64,000 nucleotides of DNA, from assembly GCA_021781215.1 (NCBI GenBank), contig JAJXXC010000006.1, positions 11,029 to 75,028 on the forward strand. Direction: 5' to 3'. The notes beneath the pieces are model-generated. The model ran no database searches, had not been told where the DNA came from, and was given only the letters and a program-made list of their open reading frames with translations. Made by a program: the position numbers and the translations under genes. Shown one piece after another: positions 10,953-22,728 of the stretch. How positions within the stretch are numbered: the stretch's first letter is position 1; every line of letters begins with the position of its first letter. This DNA is from a bacterium (GTDB lineage Bacteria > Patescibacteriota > Saccharimonadia > Saccharimonadales > DATKHC01).

Positions 10953-11261
10953 CTAAAGGATTCTGTCTAGGTCTCTGCGTCCGTATAGCATACGCCTAAT
11001 TATCATGACATTATCTATGACAACATAGAATATTAGGTAATTGCCTACAAGAATTCTGCGGTATGGGTATGGTCGGTTGTCTAGTGACTGGTAGGGTGCT
11101 ACGCTCAGTGGATTACTGAGACGTTTTTTAATGGCAGCTTCAGCATTATTAACAAGTGTTTTTGCCGCTAAATTGTTTTTAAGCTCAAATAATAGATAAT
11201 CTGTAATATTATCTAAATCTTCATAGAAAAGTGGAGAGTAACGAAGCTCAAAGTTAGCCAT
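10953..11261 (-). CDS. RelE/ParE-family type II toxin
   Basis: 102 aa with family-typical pattern (YSPLFYEDLDNITDYL...YLIFYVV..NVMIIRRMLYGRRD); overlaps the upstream antitoxin by 8 nt. Confidence 0.65.
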   Translation of the reverse strand: MANFELRYSPLFYEDLDNITDYLLFELKNNLAAKTLVNNAEAAIKKRLSNPLSVAPYQSLDNRPYPYRRILVGNYLIFYVVIDNVMIIRRMLYGRRDLDRIL

Positions 11262-11520
11262 TTATTTTTGCATTAATTTTAGAGAATACATCATCATGCG
11301 TTAGGTTTTCGGCGTGACTATTTGCGTAAATATCAGCTTCGTCAAGAGCACGCTCAATATAATCAAGATGAGATAGTTTACTAAATTTATCAAAACTCAT
11401 GGTCACCATAGAAGCTCTTCCGTTCGTAGTAAAGATAACAGGCTTATTTTTACCACTAACTTCTTGCTCCACTTCTGTAAAGTGATTTCTTAAATCAGAT
11501 ATGGGTCTAATAGTTAACAT
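11254..11520 (-). CDS. Phd/YefM-family antitoxin
   Basis: MLTIRPISDLRNHFTEVEQEV..KPVIFTTNGRASMVTMSFDKF; start moved to the internal ATG at 11520. Confidence 0.7.
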   Translation of the reverse strand: MLTIRPISDLRNHFTEVEQEVSGKNKPVIFTTNGRASMVTMSFDKFSKLSHLDYIERALDEADIYANSHAENLTHDDVFSKINAKING

Positions 11521-11639
11521 AATATATATCCTTTTATAGTTATCATAATTATGATAACACATAATTCAAGATTTGTTTATTTCTTAATGTCTTATTACAT
11601 CTAATAATTTCTCTGACCAAAATCTTATAAACTGATTAA

Positions 11640-11903: not shown

Positions 11904-12179
11904 ATGTCAACTATTCAATATACAATTCGTGGGGTTCCACCTGAGATTGATGCTAGGCTTCGTCGTTTAGCTCGCTTAAAAAACCGTAGCCTTAATCAGG
12001 TTGTTCTTGAACAACTGTCTTCTAATAAGTTAATTTTGCCTAAAAGGTCAACTAATATTGTTAAATCTAAGGTCAATACAGATTTTGATGATTTATTTGG
12101 CAGTATTACACCTCTTGAACCAGAAGTAGAAGCAGCTCTAATCTCTCAGCGAGTGGTGAATCCTAAAGATTGGCAATAA
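11904..12179 (+). CDS. vapB: ribbon-helix-helix antitoxin (VapB/FitA-like)
   Basis: N-terminal YTIRGVPPEIDARLRRLARLKNRSLNQVVLEQL; stop lies 1 nt before the PIN gene. Confidence 0.6.
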   Translation: MSTIQYTIRGVPPEIDARLRRLARLKNRSLNQVVLEQLSSNKLILPKRSTNIVKSKVNTDFDDLFGSITPLEPEVEAALISQRVVNPKDWQ

Positions 12180-12180
12180 T

Positions 12181-12573
12181 ATGGACTTCGACCTACTGGT
12201 CTTGGACACAAATTACTATTCAGCCTTGGCGAAAAAAGACATTAGTGTTAATTCACTTATCCGAAATTCAGAAGAAATTGCTTTACCTCATACAGTAATC
12301 GGTGAGTTACTTGGAGGTTTTCGTTATGGAAGCCAATTTGATAAAAACTATAACGATTTAAAACGACTTCTAGCAAAGCCAACATGCAGAGTACTCATGC
12401 CATCCATAGAAACAGCAAATATATATGGTCGACTATATGCTGATCTTAAGAGGCGTGGAAAAATGATTCCTATGAATGATATTTGGATAGCAGCTCTAAC
12501 TATTGAGTACGAAGGAACACTAGCTACGTATGACAAAGATTTCACCGCCATCCAAGGCATTAAGCTTGTTTAG
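12181..12573 (+). CDS. vapC: PIN-domain toxin VapC
   Basis: LVLDTNYY (first acidic residue), mid E/D residues and C-terminal TYDKDF; 130 aa. Confidence 0.8.
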   Translation: MDFDLLVLDTNYYSALAKKDISVNSLIRNSEEIALPHTVIGELLGGFRYGSQFDKNYNDLKRLLAKPTCRVLMPSIETANIYGRLYADLKRRGKMIPMNDIWIAALTIEYEGTLATYDKDFTAIQGIKLV

Positions 12574-14399: not shown

Positions 14400-14428
14400 T
14401 TGACAAATCTCTATTCATTGAGATAATT
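14400..14428 (+). promoter_or_regulatory. putative promoter of 14453 ORF
   Basis: TTGACA-17 nt-ATAATT. Confidence 0.4.
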
Positions 14429-14452: not shown

Positions 14453-14677
14453 ATGAACACACAACAAATACAATCTAAAAAATCAATTACTCCGGCGCAG
14501 GCTCTCTTGCAAAAAGAGGTGACTAGAAAAGAGTTTATAGCTACATCTGGACTTGCAATAGTATCGATTCTGGGTTTTTCTACTATTATTCATTTTCTGA
14601 CTGGTCATGGTAATGGACGGCCAATAGTCGCAAGCTCTAAACAAAGTGGCTATGGATCAAGCTCCTACGGTCGATAA
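14453..14677 (+). CDS. small protein with Tat-signal-like RK motif (paralog of 16017..16352)
   Basis: VTRKEFIATSGLAIVSILGFSTIIHFLTG followed by only about 25 further residues. Confidence 0.55.
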   Translation: MNTQQIQSKKSITPAQALLQKEVTRKEFIATSGLAIVSILGFSTIIHFLTGHGNGRPIVASSKQSGYGSSSYGR

Positions 14678-14717
14678 GAATAACTACTGATTTTTCTGCT
14701 ATCTGATGTTTTATGAG

Positions 14718-15695
14718 CTACTCTTGAGATTGATTTAAGCCAGTTTGTGTTTTAAGGGTGCTCGGGATAATGTCCGTGATCAATTGTTTGTTGGCCTTAA
14801 TTTGTCGAGTAACATTAGGGTGAGTACTGGGGGCTAACGTCCGACGTGTCATCGCATTAGTGGTAGTTATTGTTGGTTTTAATGGTGACTTAGGCATAAT
14901 ATTTTGACCTGTTTGTATAAAAATACCATCTTGTTGTTTTAGCTCATGCCTGTTGATAAGCCACAATAACAGAATGGTAAGGTTATACATAAATATAATA
15001 GGCCCAGCTATTATCAGTTGATCAATAATATTAGCAGTAGGCGCCATTAACATTGAAATAATGAATGCTGAAACTATTATGTATCGTTCGGCTTTAAATA
15101 ATTTTCGGGGTGGTAAAGGTTTAATATGATTAATAAACAGTAAGATGATCGGTAGTTGAAACAGCAGCATCGAACCAAGTAAATAGATCGTTAGAAATGA
15201 CATGTATTCCTGAATGGTAAATAACGGATGGATTTGTTTGGTAGTAAACTGATTACTAAGAAAATGTAGTGCAGCGGGCAACCCGATGTAATAGCCAAAA
15301 CAAAAACCGATTATTGCCAGTATCACCGAAAAAAAACTGTAACGAACTATAGAGCGTCTGACGTGGTCTCGGATGAGAGGTCTTAGAAAGGCCAATAATT
15401 GATAGACTATAACTGGTACACTGGCCGCAATACCTACATACAAACAGACCGAGAATAAAAAGTTTATTCCACCTCCTGGTGATGTATATATAAATTGTTG
15501 ATTATTCGAAGGCCTAAGCAAAAAGCTCACAATATGTTGCTGAACTGAATAGGCTACCATAGAAAATAGCATAATTGAGCCCACTACATATATCAGTCGT
15601 TTCCTTAATTCGTACAAATGTTCAATAAAAGGCTTAACGACTTCGTCTAAATGACTTGTCTCAGCCTTTCTTTTCTGGTGTTTCCTTTTTGTCAT
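14718..15695 (-). CDS. tatC: twin-arginine translocase subunit TatC with about 70-aa C-terminal extension
   Basis: FIEHLYELRKRLIYVV N-terminus and six TM helices; overlaps tatA by 35 nt. Confidence 0.85.
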   Translation of the reverse strand: MTKRKHQKRKAETSHLDEVVKPFIEHLYELRKRLIYVVGSIMLFSMVAYSVQQHIVSFLLRPSNNQQFIYTSPGGGINFLFSVCLYVGIAASVPVIVYQLLAFLRPLIRDHVRRSIVRYSFFSVILAIIGFCFGYYIGLPAALHFLSNQFTTKQIHPLFTIQEYMSFLTIYLLGSMLLFQLPIILLFINHIKPLPPRKLFKAERYIIVSAFIISMLMAPTANIIDQLIIAGPIIFMYNLTILLLWLINRHELKQQDGIFIQTGQNIMPKSPLKPTITTTNAMTRRTLAPSTHPNVTRQIKANKQLITDIIPSTLKTQTGLNQSQE

Positions 15696-15870
15696 CAGTT
15701 TTACTTTCGTGTAGGTCGTCAGAAAATCCTTTTCTGAGTTCTCGCACAGAGTTAGATAGATTCTTTGTTAGTTTTGGTAGGTTTTTGCCACCAAACAAAA
15801 CCAAGATAATCGCTAAAATAATAATAAGTTCTGGAGCGCCTAAATCAAGGAATGCAAAATTTGAAAACAT
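15661..15870 (-). CDS. tatA: twin-arginine translocase subunit TatA/E
   Basis: LGAPELIIILAIILVLFGGKNLPKLTKNLSNSVRELRKGF (TM, FG hinge, amphipathic helix). Confidence 0.85.
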   Translation of the reverse strand: MFSNFAFLDLGAPELIIILAIILVLFGGKNLPKLTKNLSNSVRELRKGFSDDLHESKTDDKKETPEKKG

Positions 15871-15948
15871 ATAAACTCCTAATATAAATTGTTATTCAAA
15901 TAATACCATAACTAAAATAGTTTTCTAGTTATAATCTTATTGTCGTCT

Positions 15949-15978
15949 CTTGACTCTTATGCTTTAACATATGTAGAA
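15949..15978 (+). promoter_or_regulatory. putative promoter of the small-ORF/beta-helix module
   Basis: TTGACT-18 nt-TAGAAT; the segment is partly duplicated at 19145-19235. Confidence 0.4.
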
Positions 15979-16016
15979 TAAAAAGCAGTAGAATAAGACG
16001 TGAGATATTATAAGTT

Positions 16017-16352
16017 ATGGGAACAAATCACTCAGAGTACTCCAGCAATGGTTTGAATAGAGGGCTAGGAACGGATACAGCTACCGCTATGTTTGTCAAT
16101 ATTCGACATGTAGAGATGCGGTCAGCTAGTTTAGCGGCTTCGAGCAACCATCTATCAACCCCAATCCAAAACCTTCTTTCAAAACAGGTATCTCGTAAGC
16201 AGTTTTTGTTAATTTTGGGTTTTAGTATTGTTTCGATTCTGGGCTTCTCTAGCATAGTTCATTTTTTTACCGGGAGACGTCCAGGAAATCATATAGCTCA
16301 GAATACATCTAATACCGCATCTAATTATGGACATAAAATACAAAAATCATGA
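16017..16352 (+). CDS. small protein with Tat-signal-like RK motif
   Basis: VSRKQFLLILGFSIVSILGFSSIVHFFTG; paralog of 14453..14677. Confidence 0.55.
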   Translation: MGTNHSEYSSNGLNRGLGTDTATAMFVNIRHVEMRSASLAASSNHLSTPIQNLLSKQVSRKQFLLILGFSIVSILGFSSIVHFFTGRRPGNHIAQNTSNTASNYGHKIQKS

Positions 16353-16419
16353 GACAGATAATATTTGATACTATTGTTGCGCAAGGCGAGATAGAAGTAA
16401 GTGGCTATAGGCATGATCA

Positions 16420-18843
16420 ATGACCCAGCGCTTACCAATACCTGGTGGCGATGATGGTGATTGGGGAGATATTCTTAATGGATATCTTGGTGTATCACTG
16501 TACAGTGACGGCACTCTAAACCCTAATGTAGTATCTGATTCTCAAGTAGCTAGCTCCGCAGCCATTAATCCTACTAAAATCTCTGGTATTGCGGAAGTGC
16601 GGACAAATAAAAATCAACCTAGTGGTTATGCGGGATTAAATAGCTCTGGTTTTGTGCCAGTGGCTCTTATCCCTGATGCTACGACATCTGTCCCGGGTAT
16701 AGTTCAATTAGCGGGTGACTTGGGTGGTAGCGGTACTACTGCTGTCGCGCCAACTTTGGCTAATACTAGTAATGTTCAAAGTGTAGTGAATAGTATTATT
16801 GCTACTAATACTACAGTGGCTGGGGCTTTGCAAAAGACTAATAATCTAAGCGATGTTAATGATCCTGGATATAGTCGAGCAAACCTCCATGTTCCAGTAC
16901 TGACTCCGGCTGCCTGTGTATCCGTAACTAATGTGGCCAGTCTTTCGGGCCTTAACACCTATGATGGGTATACTTTAGTCACAGGAGATACGGTTCTTTT
17001 AGTCGCTCAATCTACAGCATCTCAGAATGGAGTCTGGATAGTTGCTTCGGGTTCTTGGATACGTCCTACAGAATTTGCTTCAGGTTCAACTATTAAGGGT
17101 AGGTCAATCCTAATTACTAATGGTGCTACCTATGGCAACACTCAATGGTCATTAGATGCTCCTACAGCAGGTATAACTATAGACACTACTTCTCAGACTT
17201 GGAATAACCTAAATACTTTAAATGGTAAGTACACATCTGTTTTTGGTGTAGCCGCACCAACTGGAGCAGCTGCTACAGATGCCGTCAATATCCAAACACA
17301 GATTAATAATGCTTCATCTAATGGTGGTGGAATCGTACAGCTCCAAATAGGTACCTATGCTTTATCATCAACCTCGCGTATTGATTCCACTGTAACTTAT
17401 TATTCCGCTACATCAGGGTCTTATCCTGCTGGGTCATGGCAGGACTCTTCTATTACATCAGCTGATGTCGGCTCTTATGTTATCGGAATAGGCATTAATG
17501 GCCGTTCGCCTAAGATTTTAACGGTTGTTACCTCACCTGTTACCTACTTTACTACTGATATTGCTCCAGGTGGAACGATATCCGCTTCGGCTGTAACTAT
17601 AGTTAATCCTGGCATTGTGTTGCCAGATGGTGTCACTCTCCAAGGAATAGCTGCGCCGTCAGGTGATGTAGAAGCAAAAACTGTATCTGGTGGAACAACT
17701 ATCGTAGATAGTGGCACCGGAGTAAGTATCTTCTTGCGCGGTGGAGATAATATCGCTGCCTATTTCGGACGTTCTAAAATCAAAGATTTAGGAATATGGG
17801 GTTCAGCGACCTATGGTTCAGTTGGAAGTACTTTAGCCGGTATTTGGGCAAACAATAACACTTCATTCTTAGAGATATGGGACTGTGACATCTCCGGTCA
17901 TTATCAGTTTGGGCTAGCGCTAGATTACAATATTAATTCACTAGATTGCCATAATACGGGCTTTAGCTACTGTGGTCACGCCAGTGCTACTAGCCCAACA
18001 GGTGGTGTGGGAACTGATGTTTATAACGGGTTTGCTTCAGCCGCAATTAATTTTTACAATTGTTGGGGATATAATCTATGGGGCTGGTTTATTGCTCTTG
18101 GTAGCGGTGGACAGGGATCAATCTGCCTTTATAGTTGCCAATGGAATGGTATTAAAGCAACTTCTGCTTATCTATCTGGTTCGGGTGTTCAGGTATCTGG
18201 GCCAAATTCTGTATTGGTAGATTGTTGGTCTGAAACATGTGCTTCCTATGATGTAATAGTTGGCTATGGTTATTGCACTATTATTGCGAGTACTTTATTT
18301 GGTGGTGGGGTTGGTGCTGTCCAAGTTGCTGGATCGTCAACAATAGTTAATCTTATAGGTATTGCTAGCTCTGGTCACAGTACTGCCGCGGTCGTTAATT
18401 CTAATGCCGGTCACGTGTCATGGATGAACTGTCATATCTCAGATTCTGTATTCCTAAATGGCGTGGCTACACCAACGCAGGCAGGAGGTATTGGAACAAC
18501 TAGTAATCTCGTGAGTGCCGGAACAGTTCCAGTCCCTAATGCCGTAACGGTAACTACCAATGCTGGAACCATCCCAGTTACGTCCAGTATTAATACATTC
18601 ACTAATTCATCGTCTGCAGCTATGAGTATTACTTTGGCTACCTCTGGAGCCGTCCAAGGACAGCAGACGATCGTACAAGTATACGATTATGCAGGCACTA
18701 CCGAGTCAATCACTTGGGTTAATACCGAGAACTCTACTATTAGTGTTCCAACTACATCTAATGGATCAACAACATCGCCACTAACTGTTGAATTCATATT
18801 TAACGCTAAGACTACGAAGTGGCGCTGTATTCGATCGGTTTAG
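16420..18843 (+). CDS. large signal-less tail-fibre/beta-helix-like surface protein
   Basis: N-terminus MTQRLPIPGGDDGDWGDILNGYL is shared with 19358..21376; NNLSDV..SRANL motif; NGGGIVQLQIGTYAL pectate-lyase-3-like segment; G/S/T/N-rich. Confidence 0.6.
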   Translation: MTQRLPIPGGDDGDWGDILNGYLGVSLYSDGTLNPNVVSDSQVASSAAINPTKISGIAEVRTNKNQPSGYAGLNSSGFVPVALIPDATTSVPGIVQLAGDLGGSGTTAVAPTLANTSNVQSVVNSIIATNTTVAGALQKTNNLSDVNDPGYSRANLHVPVLTPAACVSVTNVASLSGLNTYDGYTLVTGDTVLLVAQSTASQNGVWIVASGSWIRPTEFASGSTIKGRSILITNGATYGNTQWSLDAPTAGITIDTTSQTWNNLNTLNGKYTSVFGVAAPTGAAATDAVNIQTQINNASSNGGGIVQLQIGTYALSSTSRIDSTVTYYSATSGSYPAGSWQDSSITSADVGSYVIGIGINGRSPKILTVVTSPVTYFTTDIAPGGTISASAVTIVNPGIVLPDGVTLQGIAAPSGDVEAKTVSGGTTIVDSGTGVSIFLRGGDNIAAYFGRSKIKDLGIWGSATYGSVGSTLAGIWANNNTSFLEIWDCDISGHYQFGLALDYNINSLDCHNTGFSYCGHASATSPTGGVGTDVYNGFASAAINFYNCWGYNLWGWFIALGSGGQGSICLYSCQWNGIKATSAYLSGSGVQVSGPNSVLVDCWSETCASYDVIVGYGYCTIIASTLFGGGVGAVQVAGSSTIVNLIGIASSGHSTAAVVNSNAGHVSWMNCHISDSVFLNGVATPTQAGGIGTTSNLVSAGTVPVPNAVTVTTNAGTIPVTSSINTFTNSSSAAMSITLATSGAVQGQQTIVQVYDYAGTTESITWVNTENSTISVPTTSNGSTTSPLTVEFIFNAKTTKWRCIRSV

Positions 18844-19220
18844 TAGGGTATATAAAATATTGAATGCTTTCCCATTTTCATAGGTAATTGTAATGCGGTA
18901 TATTCTAAGAAGATAACGAATCTAGGCAGCATATTGTTAAAATCGTAACTGAACTATTAACCAGAGTTTTGAGTCTAATCACGTATTGGCAACTGTAGCA
19001 ATTTAGGTATCAATGTATTTTGTTGTATTGATTGAATAGTTTAGGGCTGATCAGATAGAGCAACGAAGAAGATACTGAACCAGTAGTTGTAATCGTAATA
19101 GTATTGTTAGTTGACTAGCTCCGCTATTGCCGCATTTTTATATTCTTATGCTTTATACGTTTGTAAAATAAAAAGTAGTATAATAACGTGTGTAATATCA
19201 AGGTCAGGGAAACAAATAGC

Positions 19221-19361
19221 ATGGTGCACTTTAGTAGCAGTTTTAATTTAGAACTAAAGACAGCCACCGCTATACCCAATAGTAAAAATCTATCGGATTC
19301 TATAGCTTCAGTCATAGCCAGTATTGTAATTAAACTACAGACGCAGAGCATAAAGTCATGA
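19221..19361 (+). CDS. truncated homolog of the 16017 leader ORF (46 aa)
   Basis: Hand translation MVHFSSSFNLELKTATAIPNSKNLSDSIASVIASIVIKLQTQSIKS; ATGA stop/start overlap with 19358. Confidence 0.3.
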   Translation: MVHFSSSFNLELKTATAIPNSKNLSDSIASVIASIVIKLQTQSIKS

Positions 19362-21376
19362 CCCAGCGTTTACCAGTACCGGGCGGTGATGATGGCGATT
19401 GGGGAGATATTCTTAATGGATTCTTGGATGTGTCACATAACGCTGACGGAACCTTGCAGCCGCAGGCTGTTGCGTCTGCTGGTGCCGTAACTAAGGTTAA
19501 CAACCTCTCCGATTTAACCTCTACTGCTACTGCTCGAGCTAACCTAGGTTTGGGAACGGCAGCTGCATCCGATAAGGTAGCCGCTGGCTCGGCGGGTGTA
19601 TTAGATGCTACCGACCCAACTACAACCAATAGTAGAGCACCAGTTGGTGCGGCTACTGGAGATTTATCGGGAACCTATCCTAGCCCTACAGTAGCTCGAT
19701 TAAATGGAATTGCAGTTTCTGGAACTCCTGGAATCGGAGACTTATTAACTGCCACTAACTCTAGTAATGCAGCATGGCAATCTAAACCCTATGTCTCTAG
19801 GATCAGTGGCACCAGCACCACCATAGCTCCGTTAGCCTATTTTAATATTAAAGATTATGGAGCTAAGATTGATGGAGTTACTGATGACTCAGCTGCTGTA
19901 AATGCTACCATAACTGCTGCCTTTGCAGCAGGAGGAGGTCGAGTTATTATTCCGCCCGGAGTCGTAGCATTAAGTGCGCCAATTATTCACGCTTCGTACG
20001 TTATTCTAGAAGGTTCTGGATCAGATGTTAACGGATCCTCGGGGACTATTCTCAAGCCCCTAAGCAATTACGGAGATGTAATTTCCATTCCTACCGGACT
20101 AACGGGGTTTGCTATCCGGCAGTTATCGATTATATATTCAGGAATGAACCAGTATAGTAGTTCTGCTAGCGCCTCTACGCACGCTGCAATAAAGTTCACT
20201 ATTGCAACATCTTCGGCCACTCAAACAATTCAGGGCTTAATAGAGGACGTGGTAGTAATTGGTATGAAAGTTGCCGTATATATGCCCTGGGTTCTAGGAA
20301 GTAGCCTCAATTATTCTCAGTATTATCAGATAATGCTACAACGCCTTCAATTTGCTTCTAATGGCATCAATCTGCTTATGAATGGTTTTTCCGATTCAAT
20401 TATTAACAGTATAATCTGTAACAATACGTTTGGCGTATTACCTTCTAGTCTAGAGACTCGCGTTGCACCGATAGCATCTACTGCTACTCCGTCAGGAACT
20501 TATACCATAGCGTCACAGAATTGGATTAATGACCTTGGAAATAGTCTAATTGATAAATTAGAGGTGTATGGTGGTACGGGTGATGGTATTGTTTTCCAAG
20601 ACTGCATAACAACTACTATTCGGGCCTGTGAGTCAGGGTCCCTGACGGGAAATGGAGTAACTATGCTTGGTTGTAACTCTCAGACCTGTTTGTATGGTCT
20701 TCATGTCGGTCTTGTTAGCGGGCATGGAGTATATGTAACTGATTCAGCTACCAGCAATAATCCTTCTGTAGATTGTCAATTTTTTGGACTGAACGTTAAT
20801 ACAGCCAATTTGCACGGGGTCTATGTTCATGCCGCAGTTTCAGCTGCTGAACGCTTAGGCTTTTATGGCTGCCAGATAAATAATAATAGTCTCTCTGCTG
20901 CTAATACTTACAATGGGCTCGAGCTAGAAGCTTCTAGCGTAGTAGTAGTTGGAGGTACTTACGGTGATTATCAAGTCACGCATACGCAGAGATACGGGAT
21001 TAATAATCGCTATTCTGGGTCTTCTGGGCTAACGGTTATAGGCGTCGAGATGAAGAACAACTTAACTGGCCCAATGGCTCAGCCTAACGACACCACGGGC
21101 CGGATGATTGCTAATATCGGGCTAAACAATACCGCTTTTAGCACCTATACTCCAGGAGTACCTGCTGTTGGATCATCAAACGCAATCGGCAACGGTAATG
21201 CCTATGATATTACTATATATATGTCAGGAACTGCTCCGTCTGGAGTCCATATCGTCGATGTTAACGGGACTGATCAAAACTTAGCAGGCAATCCAACTGT
21301 TGTACATTTGCATCCCAATGAGAGAATATATTTCAACACTACATCTCCCGGGGCCTGGATGTGGTACGGCGAATAA
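19358..21376 (+). CDS. pectate-lyase-superfamily (right-handed beta-helix) tail-fibre-like protein
   Basis: YFNIKDYGAKIDGVTDDSAAVNATITAAFAAGGGRVIIPPG (Pectate_lyase_3 signature); NNLSDLTSTATARANLGLG fibre motif; no signal peptide. Confidence 0.7.
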   Translation: MTQRLPVPGGDDGDWGDILNGFLDVSHNADGTLQPQAVASAGAVTKVNNLSDLTSTATARANLGLGTAAASDKVAAGSAGVLDATDPTTTNSRAPVGAATGDLSGTYPSPTVARLNGIAVSGTPGIGDLLTATNSSNAAWQSKPYVSRISGTSTTIAPLAYFNIKDYGAKIDGVTDDSAAVNATITAAFAAGGGRVIIPPGVVALSAPIIHASYVILEGSGSDVNGSSGTILKPLSNYGDVISIPTGLTGFAIRQLSIIYSGMNQYSSSASASTHAAIKFTIATSSATQTIQGLIEDVVVIGMKVAVYMPWVLGSSLNYSQYYQIMLQRLQFASNGINLLMNGFSDSIINSIICNNTFGVLPSSLETRVAPIASTATPSGTYTIASQNWINDLGNSLIDKLEVYGGTGDGIVFQDCITTTIRACESGSLTGNGVTMLGCNSQTCLYGLHVGLVSGHGVYVTDSATSNNPSVDCQFFGLNVNTANLHGVYVHAAVSAAERLGFYGCQINNNSLSAANTYNGLELEASSVVVVGGTYGDYQVTHTQRYGINNRYSGSSGLTVIGVEMKNNLTGPMAQPNDTTGRMIANIGLNNTAFSTYTPGVPAVGSSNAIGNGNAYDITIYMSGTAPSGVHIVDVNGTDQNLAGNPTVVHLHPNERIYFNTTSPGAWMWYGE

Positions 21377-21430
21377 CGATAAGAAAATTGAGACCTAAAA
21401 ACCATCAAGATTCTTTGTAGTAAGTAGGGG

Positions 21431-21799
21431 CTAAACTTGACGTCTTCTTTTATGTATTTGAGTTAAAACAATAAGCAGGCAAGCTGCTGCAGCAATCGTT
21501 ATTATGATAGCCGCCCAGAGTCCTGTATCGAACCCCTTGTTAGTAGAAATCGTAGCAACAACGCCTTTAGGTGTCGATATACCTTGGTGCTGCTGTGTTG
21601 ATGGAACAGTCTGGGGTTGAGTTGATGAAGTGGGTGAAGTAGCAGCCGAACCAGTGCTAGTAGGCGTAGAACCAGTATTTGTAGCTGCGGAACCAGTGCT
21701 CGTAGTCGTCGTAGTACTGTTAGTTGAATAGGCTCCACCGGTACTATAAGTATTAGCACCATATACACTAGCTATCAGGGTATCTATCATTAAAGTCAT
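21431..21799 (-). CDS. Ser/Thr-rich, C-terminally anchored surface protein
   Basis: S/T-rich low-complexity region, then C-terminal TM LWAAIIITIAAAACLLIVL and a KRRRQV tail. Confidence 0.5.
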   Translation of the reverse strand: MTLMIDTLIASVYGANTYSTGGAYSTNSTTTTTSTGSAATNTGSTPTSTGSAATSPTSSTQPQTVPSTQQHQGISTPKGVVATISTNKGFDTGLWAAIIITIAAAACLLIVLTQIHKRRRQV

Positions 21800-21954
21800 A
21801 ATATTATTTTCACCATATCTCTATTAATACATAAAAATAATACATCTAGAAATACAATATAACAAGGTAATGTATATAATTAACTAAGCTACATACTATA
21901 GAAATAAGTATTTCGCCTAAAGATCCACAATCTATTTCATGTCTACATGGTTAG

Positions 21955-22728
21955 TTAATTAGCATCTCGACGCAAGAATAATATCCAGCCAATTATCCAA
22001 CCTATAATTAAATAGGCTAAAACTATTAGAGCTGAACGACCAGCAGAAAGTTCACTCGCACCTGATTTCAAAAGACCGTTGTTGAGTACGCCTGATAATG
22101 CGGTGAATGGTAAATATTGCTGTTGATTAGCGTTTAACAAAAGTCCAATCAGTGGCTCTACAGTAACAGGTAGTAAAAACAGAGATACTATTGCTGCTAC
22201 TAGGTTGCGGAAAAATATTGCTAATAATACTGCTATCATGGCATATGCCCAGCAGTAGAATAGAACACGCCAGATAAACTCTCGATAATAGAATATCTGA
22301 CTAGCATATGAAAGGTGATGGGCGTGAAGACCTAATATGACTAATGATGGAGATAATAGCTCAACAAAGGCTGAGAATATTATGGTAAATCCGGTGATTG
22401 CGATAATTTTAGCGAGTAATGTTTTGTTTCGACTATTAGACGAAGTTAAGGTGTACATGATGGTTCCATATCTGTATTCATGGGCCATTAACAACACAGC
22501 AATTATTGAGCTAAATAAAATCGGAGGAGCGATTCCTCTAGCTCTTGCGGCTTGAATTACTAGGTAGAGAGGGTTTTTAAGACTTATTAAATCATGTGAA
22601 GATCCTGCTCTCCAGCCAATAATATAGAAGTTATAAAAGATTATATAAACTAGGGCCAGGCCAATTAATATATAGGTCGAACGAATGCTAAATAGTTTAC
22701 GAAACTCGGCTTTAATTGCTGCAATCAT
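21955..22728 (-). CDS. ABC-2 family permease
   Basis: Six TM helices; 4-nt overlap with the upstream ATPase. Confidence 0.7.
   Translation of the reverse strand: MIAAIKAEFRKLFSIRSTYILIGLALVYIIFYNFYIIGWRAGSSHDLISLKNPLYLVIQAARARGIAPPILFSSIIAVLLMAHEYRYGTIMYTLTSSNSRNKTLLAKIIAITGFTIIFSAFVELLSPSLVILGLHAHHLSYASQIFYYREFIWRVLFYCWAYAMIAVLLAIFFRNLVAAIVSLFLLPVTVEPLIGLLLNANQQQYLPFTALSGVLNNGLLKSGASELSAGRSALIVLAYLIIGWIIGWILFLRRDAN

Follow-up and report, generated by a model that had tools for sequence, protein, structure and literature searches.

Although cofactor enzymes and recognisable RR substrates are almost absent from Saccharibacteria and other CPR bacteria, TatAC has been retained there. What the Saccharibacterial Tat system exports is the question raised by the tat locus described here, which lies in a window of 64,000 nucleotides (the whole stretch of DNA that was analysed), and to which the locus gives a testable answer. 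The parts of this answer are a class-wide TatC variant from which the Y100 and E103 contacts are gone, a putative single-arginine ligand encoded in the same operon, and a statistical link to signal-less fibres of phage type. Our tentative reading is that two small membrane proteins of the locus, mini1 and mini2, represent a Tat-recognised signal-anchor working in trans for signal-less surface fibres.

The tat locus and the fibre genes

The original prediction had placed the two mini-ORFs on either side of tatC-tatA, which lies on the opposite strand. Its coordinates and strands for these genes were all correct on re-check, and the bracketing was borne out by the mapped coordinates, mini1 and mini2 both adjoining tatA/tatC of the window:

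14400-14427, forward strand: promoter-like site just 5' of mini1 (TTGACA-16-GATAAT with TG extension; 11/12)
14453-14677, forward strand: mini1, a single-pass membrane protein of 74 aa, convergent with tatC
14718-15695, reverse strand: tatC (Pfam TatC, 2e-47)
15661-15870, reverse strand: tatA, 69 aa (TatA_B_E, 1.7e-11), overlapping the start of tatC
15950-15979, forward strand: promoter-like site 5' of mini2, in the divergent intergenic region between tatA and mini2 (10/12)
16017-16352, forward strand: mini2, 111 aa, paralog of mini1, of the 'mini2-like' subfamily
16420-18843, forward strand: fibre1, 807 aa, signal-less, bearing the adaptor domain MTQRLPIPGGDDGDWGDILNG ('RLP') at its N-terminus
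19358-21376, forward strand: fibre2, 672 aa, signal-less, with an RLP N-domain as in fibre1 and a right-handed beta-helix from aa 161
21431-21799, reverse strand: small tail-anchored protein of YG-like type (MTLMIDTLIASVYGANTYSTGGAYS…, then an S/T-rich segment, a TM at the C-terminus and KRRRQV)

The promoter-like sites are consensus matches only, and their total did not exceed the shuffled expectation; the site at 14400-14427 was the best consensus match of the region. Neither a promoter-like nor a terminator-like site was seen between mini2 and fibre1, where 67 nt separate the end of mini2 from the 807-aa ORF. Toxin-antitoxin pairs, tatAC and an ABC transporter neighbour the fibre genes in the window.

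YG-LxNTG proteins, which resemble sortase substrates and share the YG motif of their N-terminus with the tail of the mini-proteins, flank tatA in most Saccharibacteria; their divergent placement relative to tatA, near a sortase, was seen at 95 loci or more. The protein at 21431-21799 gave no match to the family HMM and is devoid of L-x-[ND]-TG; its architecture and its counterparts at two other loci (L089 and L178) point to a degenerate relative of the YG-LxNTG family.

Kyte-Doolittle hydropathy agreed with the claim that the fibres have no N-terminal signal, as no hydrophobic segment was found in their first 110 aa. The maximum 15-aa mean over this stretch was 1.31 and 0.88 in the two fibres, compared with 2.1-2.6 in the mini-proteins and 1.88 in a neighbouring Sec-type protein. 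A beta-helix or tail-spike character held for fibre2 (Pect-lyase_RHGA_epim, 4e-10; PDB matches to AlgE and pectate lyase; tail-spike PHROGs) and only in part for fibre1, in which aa 165-278 resemble a phage virion-protein or capsid-decoration domain. The RLP N-domains of the two fibres shared 81% DNA identity across the first 95 nt, and the C-termini of RLP proteins were modular and variable. A 97-aa RLP protein was modelled with a pLDDT of 75, and no significant PDB match to its fold was obtained (best match, a pyocin tail fibre, E = 3).

On three of four viral contigs the RLP N-domain was found in phage structural modules, the neighbours on the fourth (L183) being without annotation. Phage RLP genes lay in tail modules, past tape-measure or head genes, with no mini-protein gene present, and a scan of 2.9 million viral contigs confirmed no relative of the mini-proteins. 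Beside chromosomal RLP genes no match to capsid, portal or terminase was obtained, and a prophage context was rejected on the basis of these flanks. A phrog_1574 glycosyltransferase-like gene, common to the L081 cluster and phage contig L184, was the sole item shared. Recent horizontal transfer of the fibres was also rejected, their GC3 (0.29-0.35) being equal to that of their neighbours; the difference in overall GC (0.44 for the fibres vs 0.36) results from a different amino-acid composition.

A single-arginine motif and the TatC signal-peptide site

The block shared by the two mini-ORFs reflects real paralogy, far above chance, as displayed by BLASTP (30 of 58 positions identical, 52%; E = 1e-17), by the DNA of the TM cores (77% identity over 47 nt) and by a single family profile matching both mini1 (4.5e-27) and mini2 (2.6e-22). 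A homolog search with mini2 returned only mini2 itself and one mini1-type protein. The family belongs to Saccharimonadia and encompasses proteins of about 65 aa (861 clusters), with a consensus made of LLxKE[MV]-[ST]-R-K-E-F-L, a TM rich in Gly and Ser, LTGK, a linker of polar residues and GYGSSxYG. The start of the block as originally delimited had to be moved, conservation beginning about eight residues ahead of the Arg (LLxKE[MV][ST]RKEF). The stretch following the block, described as 20-30 polar residues only, was indeed short and proved not to be featureless, the conserved C-terminal GYGSSxYG having been overlooked. This element is intact in mini1 (GYGSSSYG) and shrunk to NYGHK in mini2. 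The n-region of mini1 reads LLQKEVTRKEF (Arg25; motif TRKEFI) and its TM spans about aa 28-51. In mini2 the conserved core covers aa 48-105 (LLSKQVSRKQF, the TM and NYGHK; motif SRKQFL), and the N-terminal 45 aa are not conserved, which may be partly an effect of start-codon choice. An N-terminal extension marks the 'mini2-like' subfamily.

Among 167 family members, the first Arg and the Phe of the motif were invariant (167/167 for each), the cap position was T80/S60/D17/N9 (166/167) and the residue after Phe was Leu or Ile in 144 (L122/I22). The second motif position was occupied by K130, R11, Q10, G4 and T4; the second (twin) Arg of a canonical Tat signal is absent in both mini1 and mini2, which have Lys instead. 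The h-region, about 22 residues long and uncharged, is rich in Gly, Ser and Thr and has a mean Kyte-Doolittle hydropathy of 1.7. A basic N-region of 25-60 aa precedes the TM, and the polar tail after it is predicted to be disordered. The charge bias of the family (3.8 K+R in the N-flank vs 1.9 in the C-flank) points to an N-in orientation, and the predicted model of mini1 showed a single helix at residues 14-51 followed by a disordered tail. Neither an A-x-A signal-peptidase site nor a mature passenger domain was found in the mini-proteins, the TM ending with LTGK and about 24 residues remaining after it. LTGK was considered as a sortase motif and dropped by inspection, as it differs from the L-x-[ND]-TG of the YG proteins.

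Among 2,324 gene-like ORFs, 139 of the 141 displaying cap-R-x-x-F together with an h-region were mini-proteins, and canonical RR signals were nearly missing. A published TATFIND analysis of one Saccharibacterium yielded 4 dubious hits only (PMC6031116). Literature searches on the family name, or on Saccharibacteria with Tat or TatC, returned nothing specific.

In the cryo-EM structure of TatBC with a substrate, the first Arg touches E15 and F94, the second Arg is salt-bridged to E103 and lies against Y100, and the signal Phe occupies a pocket made of F94, L9, H12 and L13; binding is lost in the TatC variant E103A (PMC13323110). The equivalents of H12 and E15 were H and E in all of 75 Saccharibacterial TatCs (75/75 for each) and that of F94 was Y or F. 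The Y100 equivalent was mostly K or R, and the E103 equivalent was T, S or A, never E. The TatC of the window has kept the equivalents of H12, E15 and F94, with Arg in place of Y100 and Val in place of E103 ('RDHVRR'). Glu at the E103 equivalent was found in 4 of 86 further TatCs, all four from loci without a mini-protein gene, and in none of 53 TatCs linked to one (Fisher p = 2e-4). The loss of E103 and Y100 reached lineages without mini-proteins (L169, L172), the E103 equivalent was missing as well from the TatC beside an RR-bearing mini2-like gene, and RR at the second motif position did not correlate with cargo linkage across loci.

To judge from these alignments, Saccharibacterial TatC appears matched to the one-Arg signal of the mini-proteins, the contacts to the first Arg and the Phe being kept and those to the second Arg lost. 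The Tat-like nature first suggested for the RK motif gained from this comparison: cap, first Arg, Phe and Leu are kept, and the second-Arg contacts of TatC are gone. Together, these features support the view that the RK motif would act like a genuine TatC-binding motif.

Linkage to the tat operon and to fibre genes

In about 85% of related loci, the mini-protein gene came third in the tat operon, the usual order being a sortase, a YG-LxNTG gene in reverse orientation and then tatA, tatC and the mini-protein gene in forward orientation. Synteny of tatC and the mini-protein gene remained at about 85% even at TatC identities down to about 43%, and in species-representative genomes about 70 of the 82 family genes were located directly after tatC. 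The co-occurrence with tatAC that had been put forward for checking did recur, a mini-protein gene being present at 53 of the 62 TatC-centred loci with enough sequence. Nine TatC loci, including those of a clade close to the window, had none nearby, and in most loci no TatB-type gene was seen. A functional tie of the mini-proteins to Tat is supported by these data.

Of the 35 mini-protein genes followed by a gene on the same strand, 10 had an RLP gene in that position, compared with 15 of 1030 in the background (p = 6e-11, odds ratio 27), a 20-fold increase over expectation. The predicted co-occurrence with MTQRLP-type genes was recovered in this way in independent genomes, and the arrangement of mini2 and fibre1, a signal-bearing partner next to a signal-less cargo gene, was found again at L081, L087 and L178. 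Second copies unlinked to tat stood 4-11 bp ahead of RLP genes (L081, L087) and also ahead of YG genes (L063, L076), and L178 harbored two cassettes of a mini2-like gene followed by an RLP gene, in which the motif is a true TRRQFL. RLP genes were also tat-linked on their own (tatA2 followed by RLP97, tatC followed by RLP100).

Several observations argue against a simple obligate-escort picture. About 88% of the mini-protein genes had no adjoining RLP gene; at the closest relative locus (L089) the fibre gene is divergent from tatA and mini2 is absent; and one mini2-like gene precedes a beta-helix protein having its own signal anchor. Tat-linked RLP-domain genes also occurred in lineages with no mini-protein gene within 6 kb, so that the mini-protein is not demonstrably required. 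No natural fusion of a mini-protein with an RLP domain (Rosetta stone) was found among the long family members. Contig L180 was too short to add information.

In the reading that we tentatively favor, the mini-proteins would be Saccharimonadia-specific, uncleaved and free-standing Tat signals, anchored N-in/C-out. The helix of the n-region (cap-[ST], Arg, Lys, Glu, Phe, Leu) would dock in the TatC signal-peptide site, with Arg reaching the E15 equivalent and Phe the H12/F94 pocket, and the single-Arg 'RK' motif is proposed as the native ligand because this TatC is devoid of both second-Arg readers. The h-region of 22 residues would next be inserted by TatA and TatC to serve as membrane anchor, with the GYGSSxYG tail left outside. 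By this Tat-dependent insertion the family could supply signal and anchor in trans to surface proteins without a signal of their own, the main cargo candidates being RLP N-domain fibres and tail-spike-like enzymes with YG sortase substrates as a possible second class; docking would take place through the conserved module at the N-terminus of the cargo. The operon copy, mini1, could be a general carrier, and mini2 a supplementary copy on one transcript with fibre1 and fibre2.

A more specific version, possible and more doubtful, is a 'split-signal' Tat in which the single-Arg mini-protein, via its YG tail or its n-region, would carry folded RLP proteins of domesticated-phage origin, perhaps also YG substrates, and so arm the epibiont surface with host-binding fibres. 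For an epibiont, signal-less RLP fibres could plausibly serve in host attachment or cell-wall degradation. Against a carrier speaks the exported part of just about 24 disordered residues, since every known hitchhiker carrier has, to our knowledge, a folded cargo-binding domain. The 807-aa and possibly trimeric fibre1, which would reach the limit of the sizes known for Tat cargo or exceed it, also counts against it, as do the nine TatC loci without a nearby mini-protein gene, the loss of E103 and Y100 outside mini-protein lineages, and the RR-bearing mini2-like gene beside a TatC without the E103 equivalent.

The fallback named in the original prediction, a Tat accessory or membrane-anchor subunit, is a live rival that we consider somewhat unlikely. 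The mini-protein would then be an integral subunit of TatAC, a permanently bound pseudo-substrate occupying or priming the TatC signal site and carrying no cargo; it could replace the missing TatB, or be a regulator or a plug, and the fibre-side copies would be meaningless duplications. Such a subunit would suit the constant third place in the tatA-tatC operon, kept across a whole class, and the class-wide change of the TatC site, the lack of a TatB-type gene in most loci and of a cargo gene beside most mini-proteins, and it leaves unexplained the 20-fold RLP enrichment directly downstream, the tat-unlinked paralogs a few base pairs ahead of RLP or YG genes and the conserved extracytoplasmic GYGSSxYG tail. 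LLxKE is conserved ahead of the Arg beyond the needs of a mere signal, and a related HMM was named 'TatB_1 / Tat system-associated protein' by NCBI curators; some tat loci, however, do without a nearby mini-protein. TatA, TatB and TatE (PF02416) are likewise small single-pass membrane proteins of tat operons, but homology of the mini-proteins to TatA/TatB was rejected (no Pfam hit at E <= 0.1; hhalign probability of 0.2% against the Saccharibacterial TatA profile), and the topology is opposite, TatA and TatB having an N-out TM, a hinge and a cytoplasmic amphipathic helix.

It is unlikely that the mini-protein is itself a dedicated small substrate, or one of few, of a reduced Tat, that is a peptide inserted by Tat or by Sec/YidC whose GYGSSxYG tail is active in the envelope. 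The tail could for example anchor or dock YG proteins and the RLP N-domain of fibres exported otherwise, adjacency reflecting a shared surface function. In B. subtilis phoD-tatAd-tatCd, a substrate is encoded together with its translocase, which sets a precedent. The YG motif common to the mini-protein tail and the YG-LxNTG N-terminus, with a sortase nearby, fits such a role, and a docking at the cell surface analogous to that of the phage RLP N-domain, a tail-attachment adaptor, is plausible. The exit of signal-less fibres of 670-810 aa is nevertheless left unexplained, no reason is provided for RLP genes beside tatA2 or tatC without a nearby mini-protein, and export by Tat would be unusual for a tail of 24 disordered residues.

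Plain single-pass membrane peptides without a Tat role, also entertained originally, with RK as a generic positive-inside flank and the fibres as phage-insertion remnants at a tat hot spot, are highly improbable: there are many short TM proteins with a basic N-flank, phage tail modules have the RLP domain too and phrog_1574 is shared with a phage contig, but Arg and Phe, spaced as in a Tat motif and accompanied by a helix-cap residue, never vary, the motif is exclusive to the family, tatC synteny holds at low TatC identity, chromosomal RLP genes have no capsid, terminase or other phage structural neighbours, fibre GC3 gives no sign of recent transfer and the viral-contig scan confirmed no mini-protein relative.

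Comparison with known systems

Both mini-proteins of the window aligned over nearly the full length of the 70-position model NF038009 ('Tat system-associated protein'), a family of the same size class that is also tat-adjacent. Scores were 54.5 bits for mini1 (E 1e-14, model positions 8-65), 38 bits for mini2 (E 1.4e-9, positions 6-61) and 36-82 bits for ten other family members (E 1e-9 to 3e-23 for all tested members), all below the curated cutoff of 100 bits. The mini-proteins of the window differ in being relatives outside the narrow curated subfamily, and their annotation would be hypothetical. Neither a function nor a publication was found for the NF038009 family.

Some family members weakly matched the Tat-signal parts of PRK09898 and TIGR02811. 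TIGR02811 proteins ('formate dehydrogenase region TAT target') are also small, about 66 aa with little besides a Tat signal, and their genes adjoin that of a probable client enzyme; the weak match was to one family member (P0162, E 0.0096), the mini-proteins of the window giving none, and the strict RR and redox-enzyme context of TIGR02811 set the two apart. Uncleaved Tat signal anchors are known from Rieske/QcrA-type proteins, in which a Tat motif is likewise combined with an h-region long enough for an N-in/C-out anchor; these proteins have a folded domain containing a cofactor, whereas the mini-proteins have just a short YG tail. The fibres of the window resemble phage tail fibres and spikes in their RLP adaptor, their beta-helix and tail-spike PHROG matches and their variable C-terminal modules, and differ in being chromosomal, outside a phage structural module and beside tatAC, mini-protein and YG genes.

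Streptomyces MelC1-MelC2 and HybO-HybC are Tat hitchhiker pairs. PaoABC is another, in which folded cargo is co-exported (PMC4273604). In these systems the gene of the signal-bearing partner lies directly 5' of that of the signal-less cargo, as mini2 does with fibre1. Known hitchhiker carriers have a folded cargo-binding mature domain, a true RR and usually a cleavable signal, whereas the mini-proteins have about 24 disordered residues past the TM, mostly RK and no A-x-A. If the accessory-subunit model were true, a new component would be added to the minimal TatAC system; if the carrier model were true, the mini-proteins would be the first hitchhiker carrier made of a signal peptide alone, and their TatC a natural re-tuning of Tat signal specificity.

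The mini family and its place at the tat locus

The tat locus of the window encoded two small membrane proteins, mini1 and mini2, followed by two long proteins, fibre1 and fibre2, both starting with an N-terminal domain of the MTQRLP type (RLP domain):

14453-14677, + strand: mini1, 74 aa
14718-15695, - strand: tatC (Pfam TatC, 2e-47)
15661-15870, - strand: tatA (TatA_B_E, 1.7e-11)
16017-16352, + strand: mini2, 111 aa
16420-18843, + strand: fibre1, 807-aa ORF beginning 67 nt past mini2
19358-21376, + strand: fibre2, 672-aa paralog of fibre1
21431-21799, - strand: degenerate YG-like ORF, the window version of the tatA-divergent YG protein

The ORF positions and the block shared by the two minis agreed with the original prediction, with 52% identity across 58 aa (E = 1e-17) and 77% identity over 47 nt in the TM cores; judged by these sequences, mini1 and mini2 are true paralogs. 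Promoter-like sites were found upstream of mini1 and of mini2 and not of fibre1, a pattern giving weak evidence that mini2 and fibre1 may be co-transcribed. An inversion in the window, in its closest relative locus (L089) and in a further relative (L178) left mini1 convergent with tatC.

The fibre and YG genes (window 16001-22000) had elevated GC (0.43-0.45 vs about 0.36) with unaltered GC3 (0.29-0.35). A foreign origin was rejected as the cause, GC3 being equal to that of host genes, and the rise is attributable to amino-acid composition (Gly, Ala, Ser, Thr). The S/T-rich coding part of the YG-like ORF contained three overlapping direct repeats (21639-21722, 21-nt spacing, 67-74% identity). 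Two toxin-antitoxin pairs (ParE/PhdYeFM and FitA-like RHH/PIN) lay shortly upstream of the tat locus, at 10953-11562 and 11904-12573, and sequence farther upstream in the related contig L002 was unlike that of the window, which suggests a variable region there.

An exhaustive profile search with a limit of E <= 1e-3 yielded 861 representative clusters of minis (clustered at 50% identity), of which 105 reached E <= 1e-10. Lengths were mostly 56-75 aa, and relatives in species-representative genomes came nearly all from Candidatus Saccharimonadales or Saccharibacteria MAGs. The NCBIfam model NF038009 ('TatB_1', twin-arginine translocation system-associated protein) matched mini1, mini2 and 10 of 10 other members with 36-82 bits, all 12 under its curated cutoff of 100 bits. 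The bare Tat association of the family is therefore already known through this context-named HMM, with the window minis under its cutoff; Pfam and PHROGs contained no model for the minis, and the literature search returned no paper on them. Kinship with TatA or TatB was discarded (no Pfam hit; hhalign probability 0.2%).

The consensus of 167 minis comprised an n-region (L-L-x-K-E-[MV]-[TS]-R-K-E-F-L), a 22-residue Gly/Ser/Thr-rich helix closing in L-T-G-K, about 12 polar residues and G-Y-G-S-S-x-Y-G. Arg25 and Phe28 (mini1 numbering) were invariant (167/167) and Gly41 nearly so (166/167). Arg25 was preceded by helix N-cap residues (T80, S60, D17, N9) and followed by K130, R11, Q10, G4 or T4. 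Minis had been described as little beyond a Tat-like signal and a polar tail: the signal-like block was recovered, but the tail was not featureless, its C-terminal YG motif having been overlooked. This motif was complete in mini1 (GYGSSSYG), whereas mini2 had a reduced version (NYGHK) that defines a mini2-like subfamily with N-terminal extensions. The K+R count (3.8 in the N-flank vs 1.9 in the C-flank) and an AlphaFold model with one helix (residues 14-51) plus a disordered tail (pLDDT 60) indicate a single-pass protein predicted to lie N-in/C-out, the orientation of a Tat signal.

About 70 of 82 family genes (80 species-representative loci) came next after tatC and were co-directional with it (tatA-tatC-mini), two exceptions being genes at contig ends. 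From the side of TatC, mini came straight after tatC in 49 of 62 loci (metagenome contigs with enough downstream sequence) and elsewhere in the flank in 4, which makes the linkage to tatAC strong in both directions (53/62 from TatC). The other nine had no mini even by sensitive search, and included a clade near the window where tatA-tatC preceded a TatD-like ORF (judged by N-terminal sequence only).

The conserved neighbourhood was wider than first described, taking in a YG protein gene, divergent from tatA within 450 bp in at least 95 loci, and a sortase gene, usually nearby. YG proteins combined a YG-rich N-terminus (YGxGxYGxxxY), an S/T-rich region, L-x-[ND]-T-G, a TM segment and RFWRRP; they had the look of sortase substrates, without N-terminal signal peptide. 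Their YGxGxYGxxxY motif resembled the GYGSSxYG tail of mini. YG proteins were encoded in related loci at:

L005, 6289-6594, - strand
L022, 4365-4619, - strand
L053, 1812-2048, - strand
L063, 6202-6423, + strand
L076, 6202-6450, + strand
L089, 5464-5805, - strand
L178, 8683-9039, + strand

The mini motif and the TatC signal site

A 2026 cryo-EM study of substrate-bound E. coli TatBC shows the first motif residue capping a helix, the first Arg reaching TatC E15 via a water molecule and stacked beneath F94, the second Arg in salt-bridge contact with E103 and packed on Y100, and the consensus Phe in a pocket of F94, L9, H12 and L13 (PMC13323110). The same study calls H12, E15, F94, Y100 and E103 highly conserved and uses E103A as binding-negative control. 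Equivalent residues (E. coli numbering) were read from 75 Saccharibacterial TatCs aligned to the Aquifex TatC sequence of PDB 4b4a:

H12 (Phe pocket): His in 75/75
E15 (first Arg): Glu in 75/75
F94 (first Arg and Phe): Tyr or Phe
Y100 (second Arg): K36, R14, T6, S5, rarer others
E103 (second Arg): T27, S23, A20; Glu or Asp in 0/75

Window TatC ('RDHVRR') carried Arg and Val at the Y100 and E103 equivalents, while Glu occupied the E103 position in all three solved TatCs among the alignments listed. TatC contacts were thus kept for the cap, first Arg and Phe that are invariant in minis, and both were lost for the Lys/variable second position. The receptor looks to have changed in step with the motif, and 'RK' would for this reason be a likely real TatC ligand.

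Glu at the position of E103 occurred in four TatCs of a second, 86-member set, all from mini-less loci (L095, L098, L099 and L100, '…HERRF…'), versus 0 of 53 mini-linked TatCs (Fisher p = 2e-4), although these four stand for only about two lineages. Loss of E103/Y100 was also seen at L169 and L172, tat loci with no mini close by. Because of the few lineages and of this wider loss, the association of mini absence with Glu at this position is suggestive and not proof.

The motif was essentially private to the mini family within the tat neighbourhoods sampled. Among 2,324 gene-like ORFs, taken from the window and from Saccharibacterial loci of about 1.6 Mb in total, cap-R-x-x-F-[LIMVF] with 15 or more uncharged residues behind it, inside the first 110 aa, was present in 141 ORFs, of which 139 were minis. 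Canonical Tat substrates were scarce in this sampling: a TATFIND-like RR search matched almost solely TM1 of TatC itself ('ELRRRL'), and the lone convincing RR signal across Saccharibacterial loci totalling about 1 Mb was of lipoprotein type (L057 1-623, - strand, ELSRRRFLQLAAGAGAALVAEGC). For one Tat-positive Saccharibacterium, a published TATFIND run likewise gave four hits, of which two are polytopic membrane proteins (PMC6031116).

RLP-domain proteins beside mini and tat genes

The RLP domain (about 35 aa; M-x-R-L-P-x-P-G-x-D-D-G-x-W-G-x-I-L-N-x-F-L…H-N-x-D-G-x-L) always occupied the first residues of the protein, joined to highly variable C-terminal modules (145-1071 aa). Neither fibre1 nor fibre2 had a hydrophobic N-terminal segment, in line with the predicted lack of a signal. 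After de-duplication to 125 minis, 35 had a same-strand downstream gene, which was an RLP gene in 10 (29%); for the remaining gene pairs of these loci the figure was 15 of 1030 (1.5%; odds ratio 27, binomial p = 6e-11). The proposed link of mini to MTQRLP-type genes was thus recurrent, not universal: about 88% of minis had no RLP neighbour, and in L089 (TatC 73% identical to that of the window) the fibre gene was divergent from tatA and mini2 was absent.

The order tatA-tatC-mini-RLP occurred in at least 8 TatC-centred loci. In genomes with two minis (L081, L087), the tat operon contained one copy and the other stood directly before an RLP gene (gaps of 4 and 11 bp), and in L063 and L076 a second mini copy preceded a YG gene. 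In the window relative L177/L178, one segmental duplication gave two mini2-like-RLP cassettes with a genuine TRRQFL motif.

As a further counter-example to the link, contig L179 encoded a mini2-like protein (2-349) and, after 108 bp, a beta-helix-type protein (457-1410) that carries an N-terminal signal anchor of its own (MKMFKKIG…ILPLIVIALVAVVGV…YYVSPNGNDSNNGT). Residues 165-278 of fibre1 (window 16912-17253) resembled a phage capsid decoration protein (PDB 9nx3_A, E 1e-11) and head-decoration/virion-structural PHROGs, with no beta-helix likeness.

The RLP profile retrieved 247 proteins, the top matches being a conserved stand-alone family of about 97 aa (…GGTGA…ARxNLG…LWIQTGLG…DMTFWVEDGK in the 97-100 aa proteins), nearly all named members of which were Saccharibacterial, with one labelled Nitrosospira. 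Three of four contexts examined were tat loci, arranged as follows, with no mini within 6 kb:

L169 (5713-6285) and L174-L176: tatC and tatA on one strand, divergent from tatA2-RLP97 (tatA2, a second TatA-family gene, 83-91 aa)
L172 (6001-6303): tatA-tatC-RLP100, with RLP100 in the usual slot of mini

The structural model of the 97-aa protein (pLDDT 75) gave no significant structural match. RLP domains were also found on four IMG/VR viral contigs, inside structural modules in all three annotated: after terminase, protease and major head genes, in a beta-helix protein (L184); with portal and major head (L181); and after tape measure and a 355-aa protein (L182). Because of these contexts, the RLP module is, from its gene neighbourhoods, identified as a phage tail-fibre/tail-spike adaptor domain. 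Chromosomal RLP genes lay outside prophage structural modules with the GC3 of host genes, and the mini profile had no match in 2.9 million viral contigs. A phrog_1574 (glycosyltransferase-like) gene was common to the chromosomal mini-RLP cluster of L081 (9561-10286) and to L184 (5159-5881), the phage contig with an RLP tail protein.

Possible roles of mini

We tentatively favour mini as a free-standing Tat signal-anchor: it would dock in the TatC signal site, be inserted by Tat, and provide in trans the missing signal, anchor or both to RLP fibres and possibly to YG proteins. This carrier role alone would explain jointly why the motif matches the receptor, why extra minis stand directly ahead of surface-type genes that lack a signal, and why folded phage-type proteins, likewise without a signal, cluster at tat loci. 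Against it speak the very small, disordered 'mature' part of mini, the great size of the putative cargo, and those tat-RLP loci where no mini lies close by. The escort function originally proposed for the fibres stood in part, through recurrent mini-RLP adjacency and signal-less fibres, and was weakened by the many minis without RLP neighbour and by mini-less tat-RLP loci.

In the main rival reading, possible but rather doubtful, mini would be an accessory or pseudo-substrate subunit in a translocase lacking TatB; this would account for its constant place in the operon and for the many copies that have no cargo gene beside them. Only slightly less probable is a third role, in which mini would be a small protein that Tat exports for its own sake, or an anchor at the surface, with a YG tail that works outside the cell with YG proteins and fibre N-domains. 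A membrane peptide unrelated to Tat would be very improbable beside the tatC linkage.

The searched literature contained no mention of the single-Arg motif of mini or its match with class-wide Y100/E103 loss in TatC, of the YG tail or the conserved sortase/YG/tatA/tatC/mini cluster, or of a statistical link between mini and phage-derived signal-less RLP fibres. Tat hitchhiking has precedents in MelC1-MelC2 of Streptomyces, the closest to the carrier role favoured here, and in HybO-HybC. PaoABC is a further hitchhiker precedent for such a carrier (PMC4273604).
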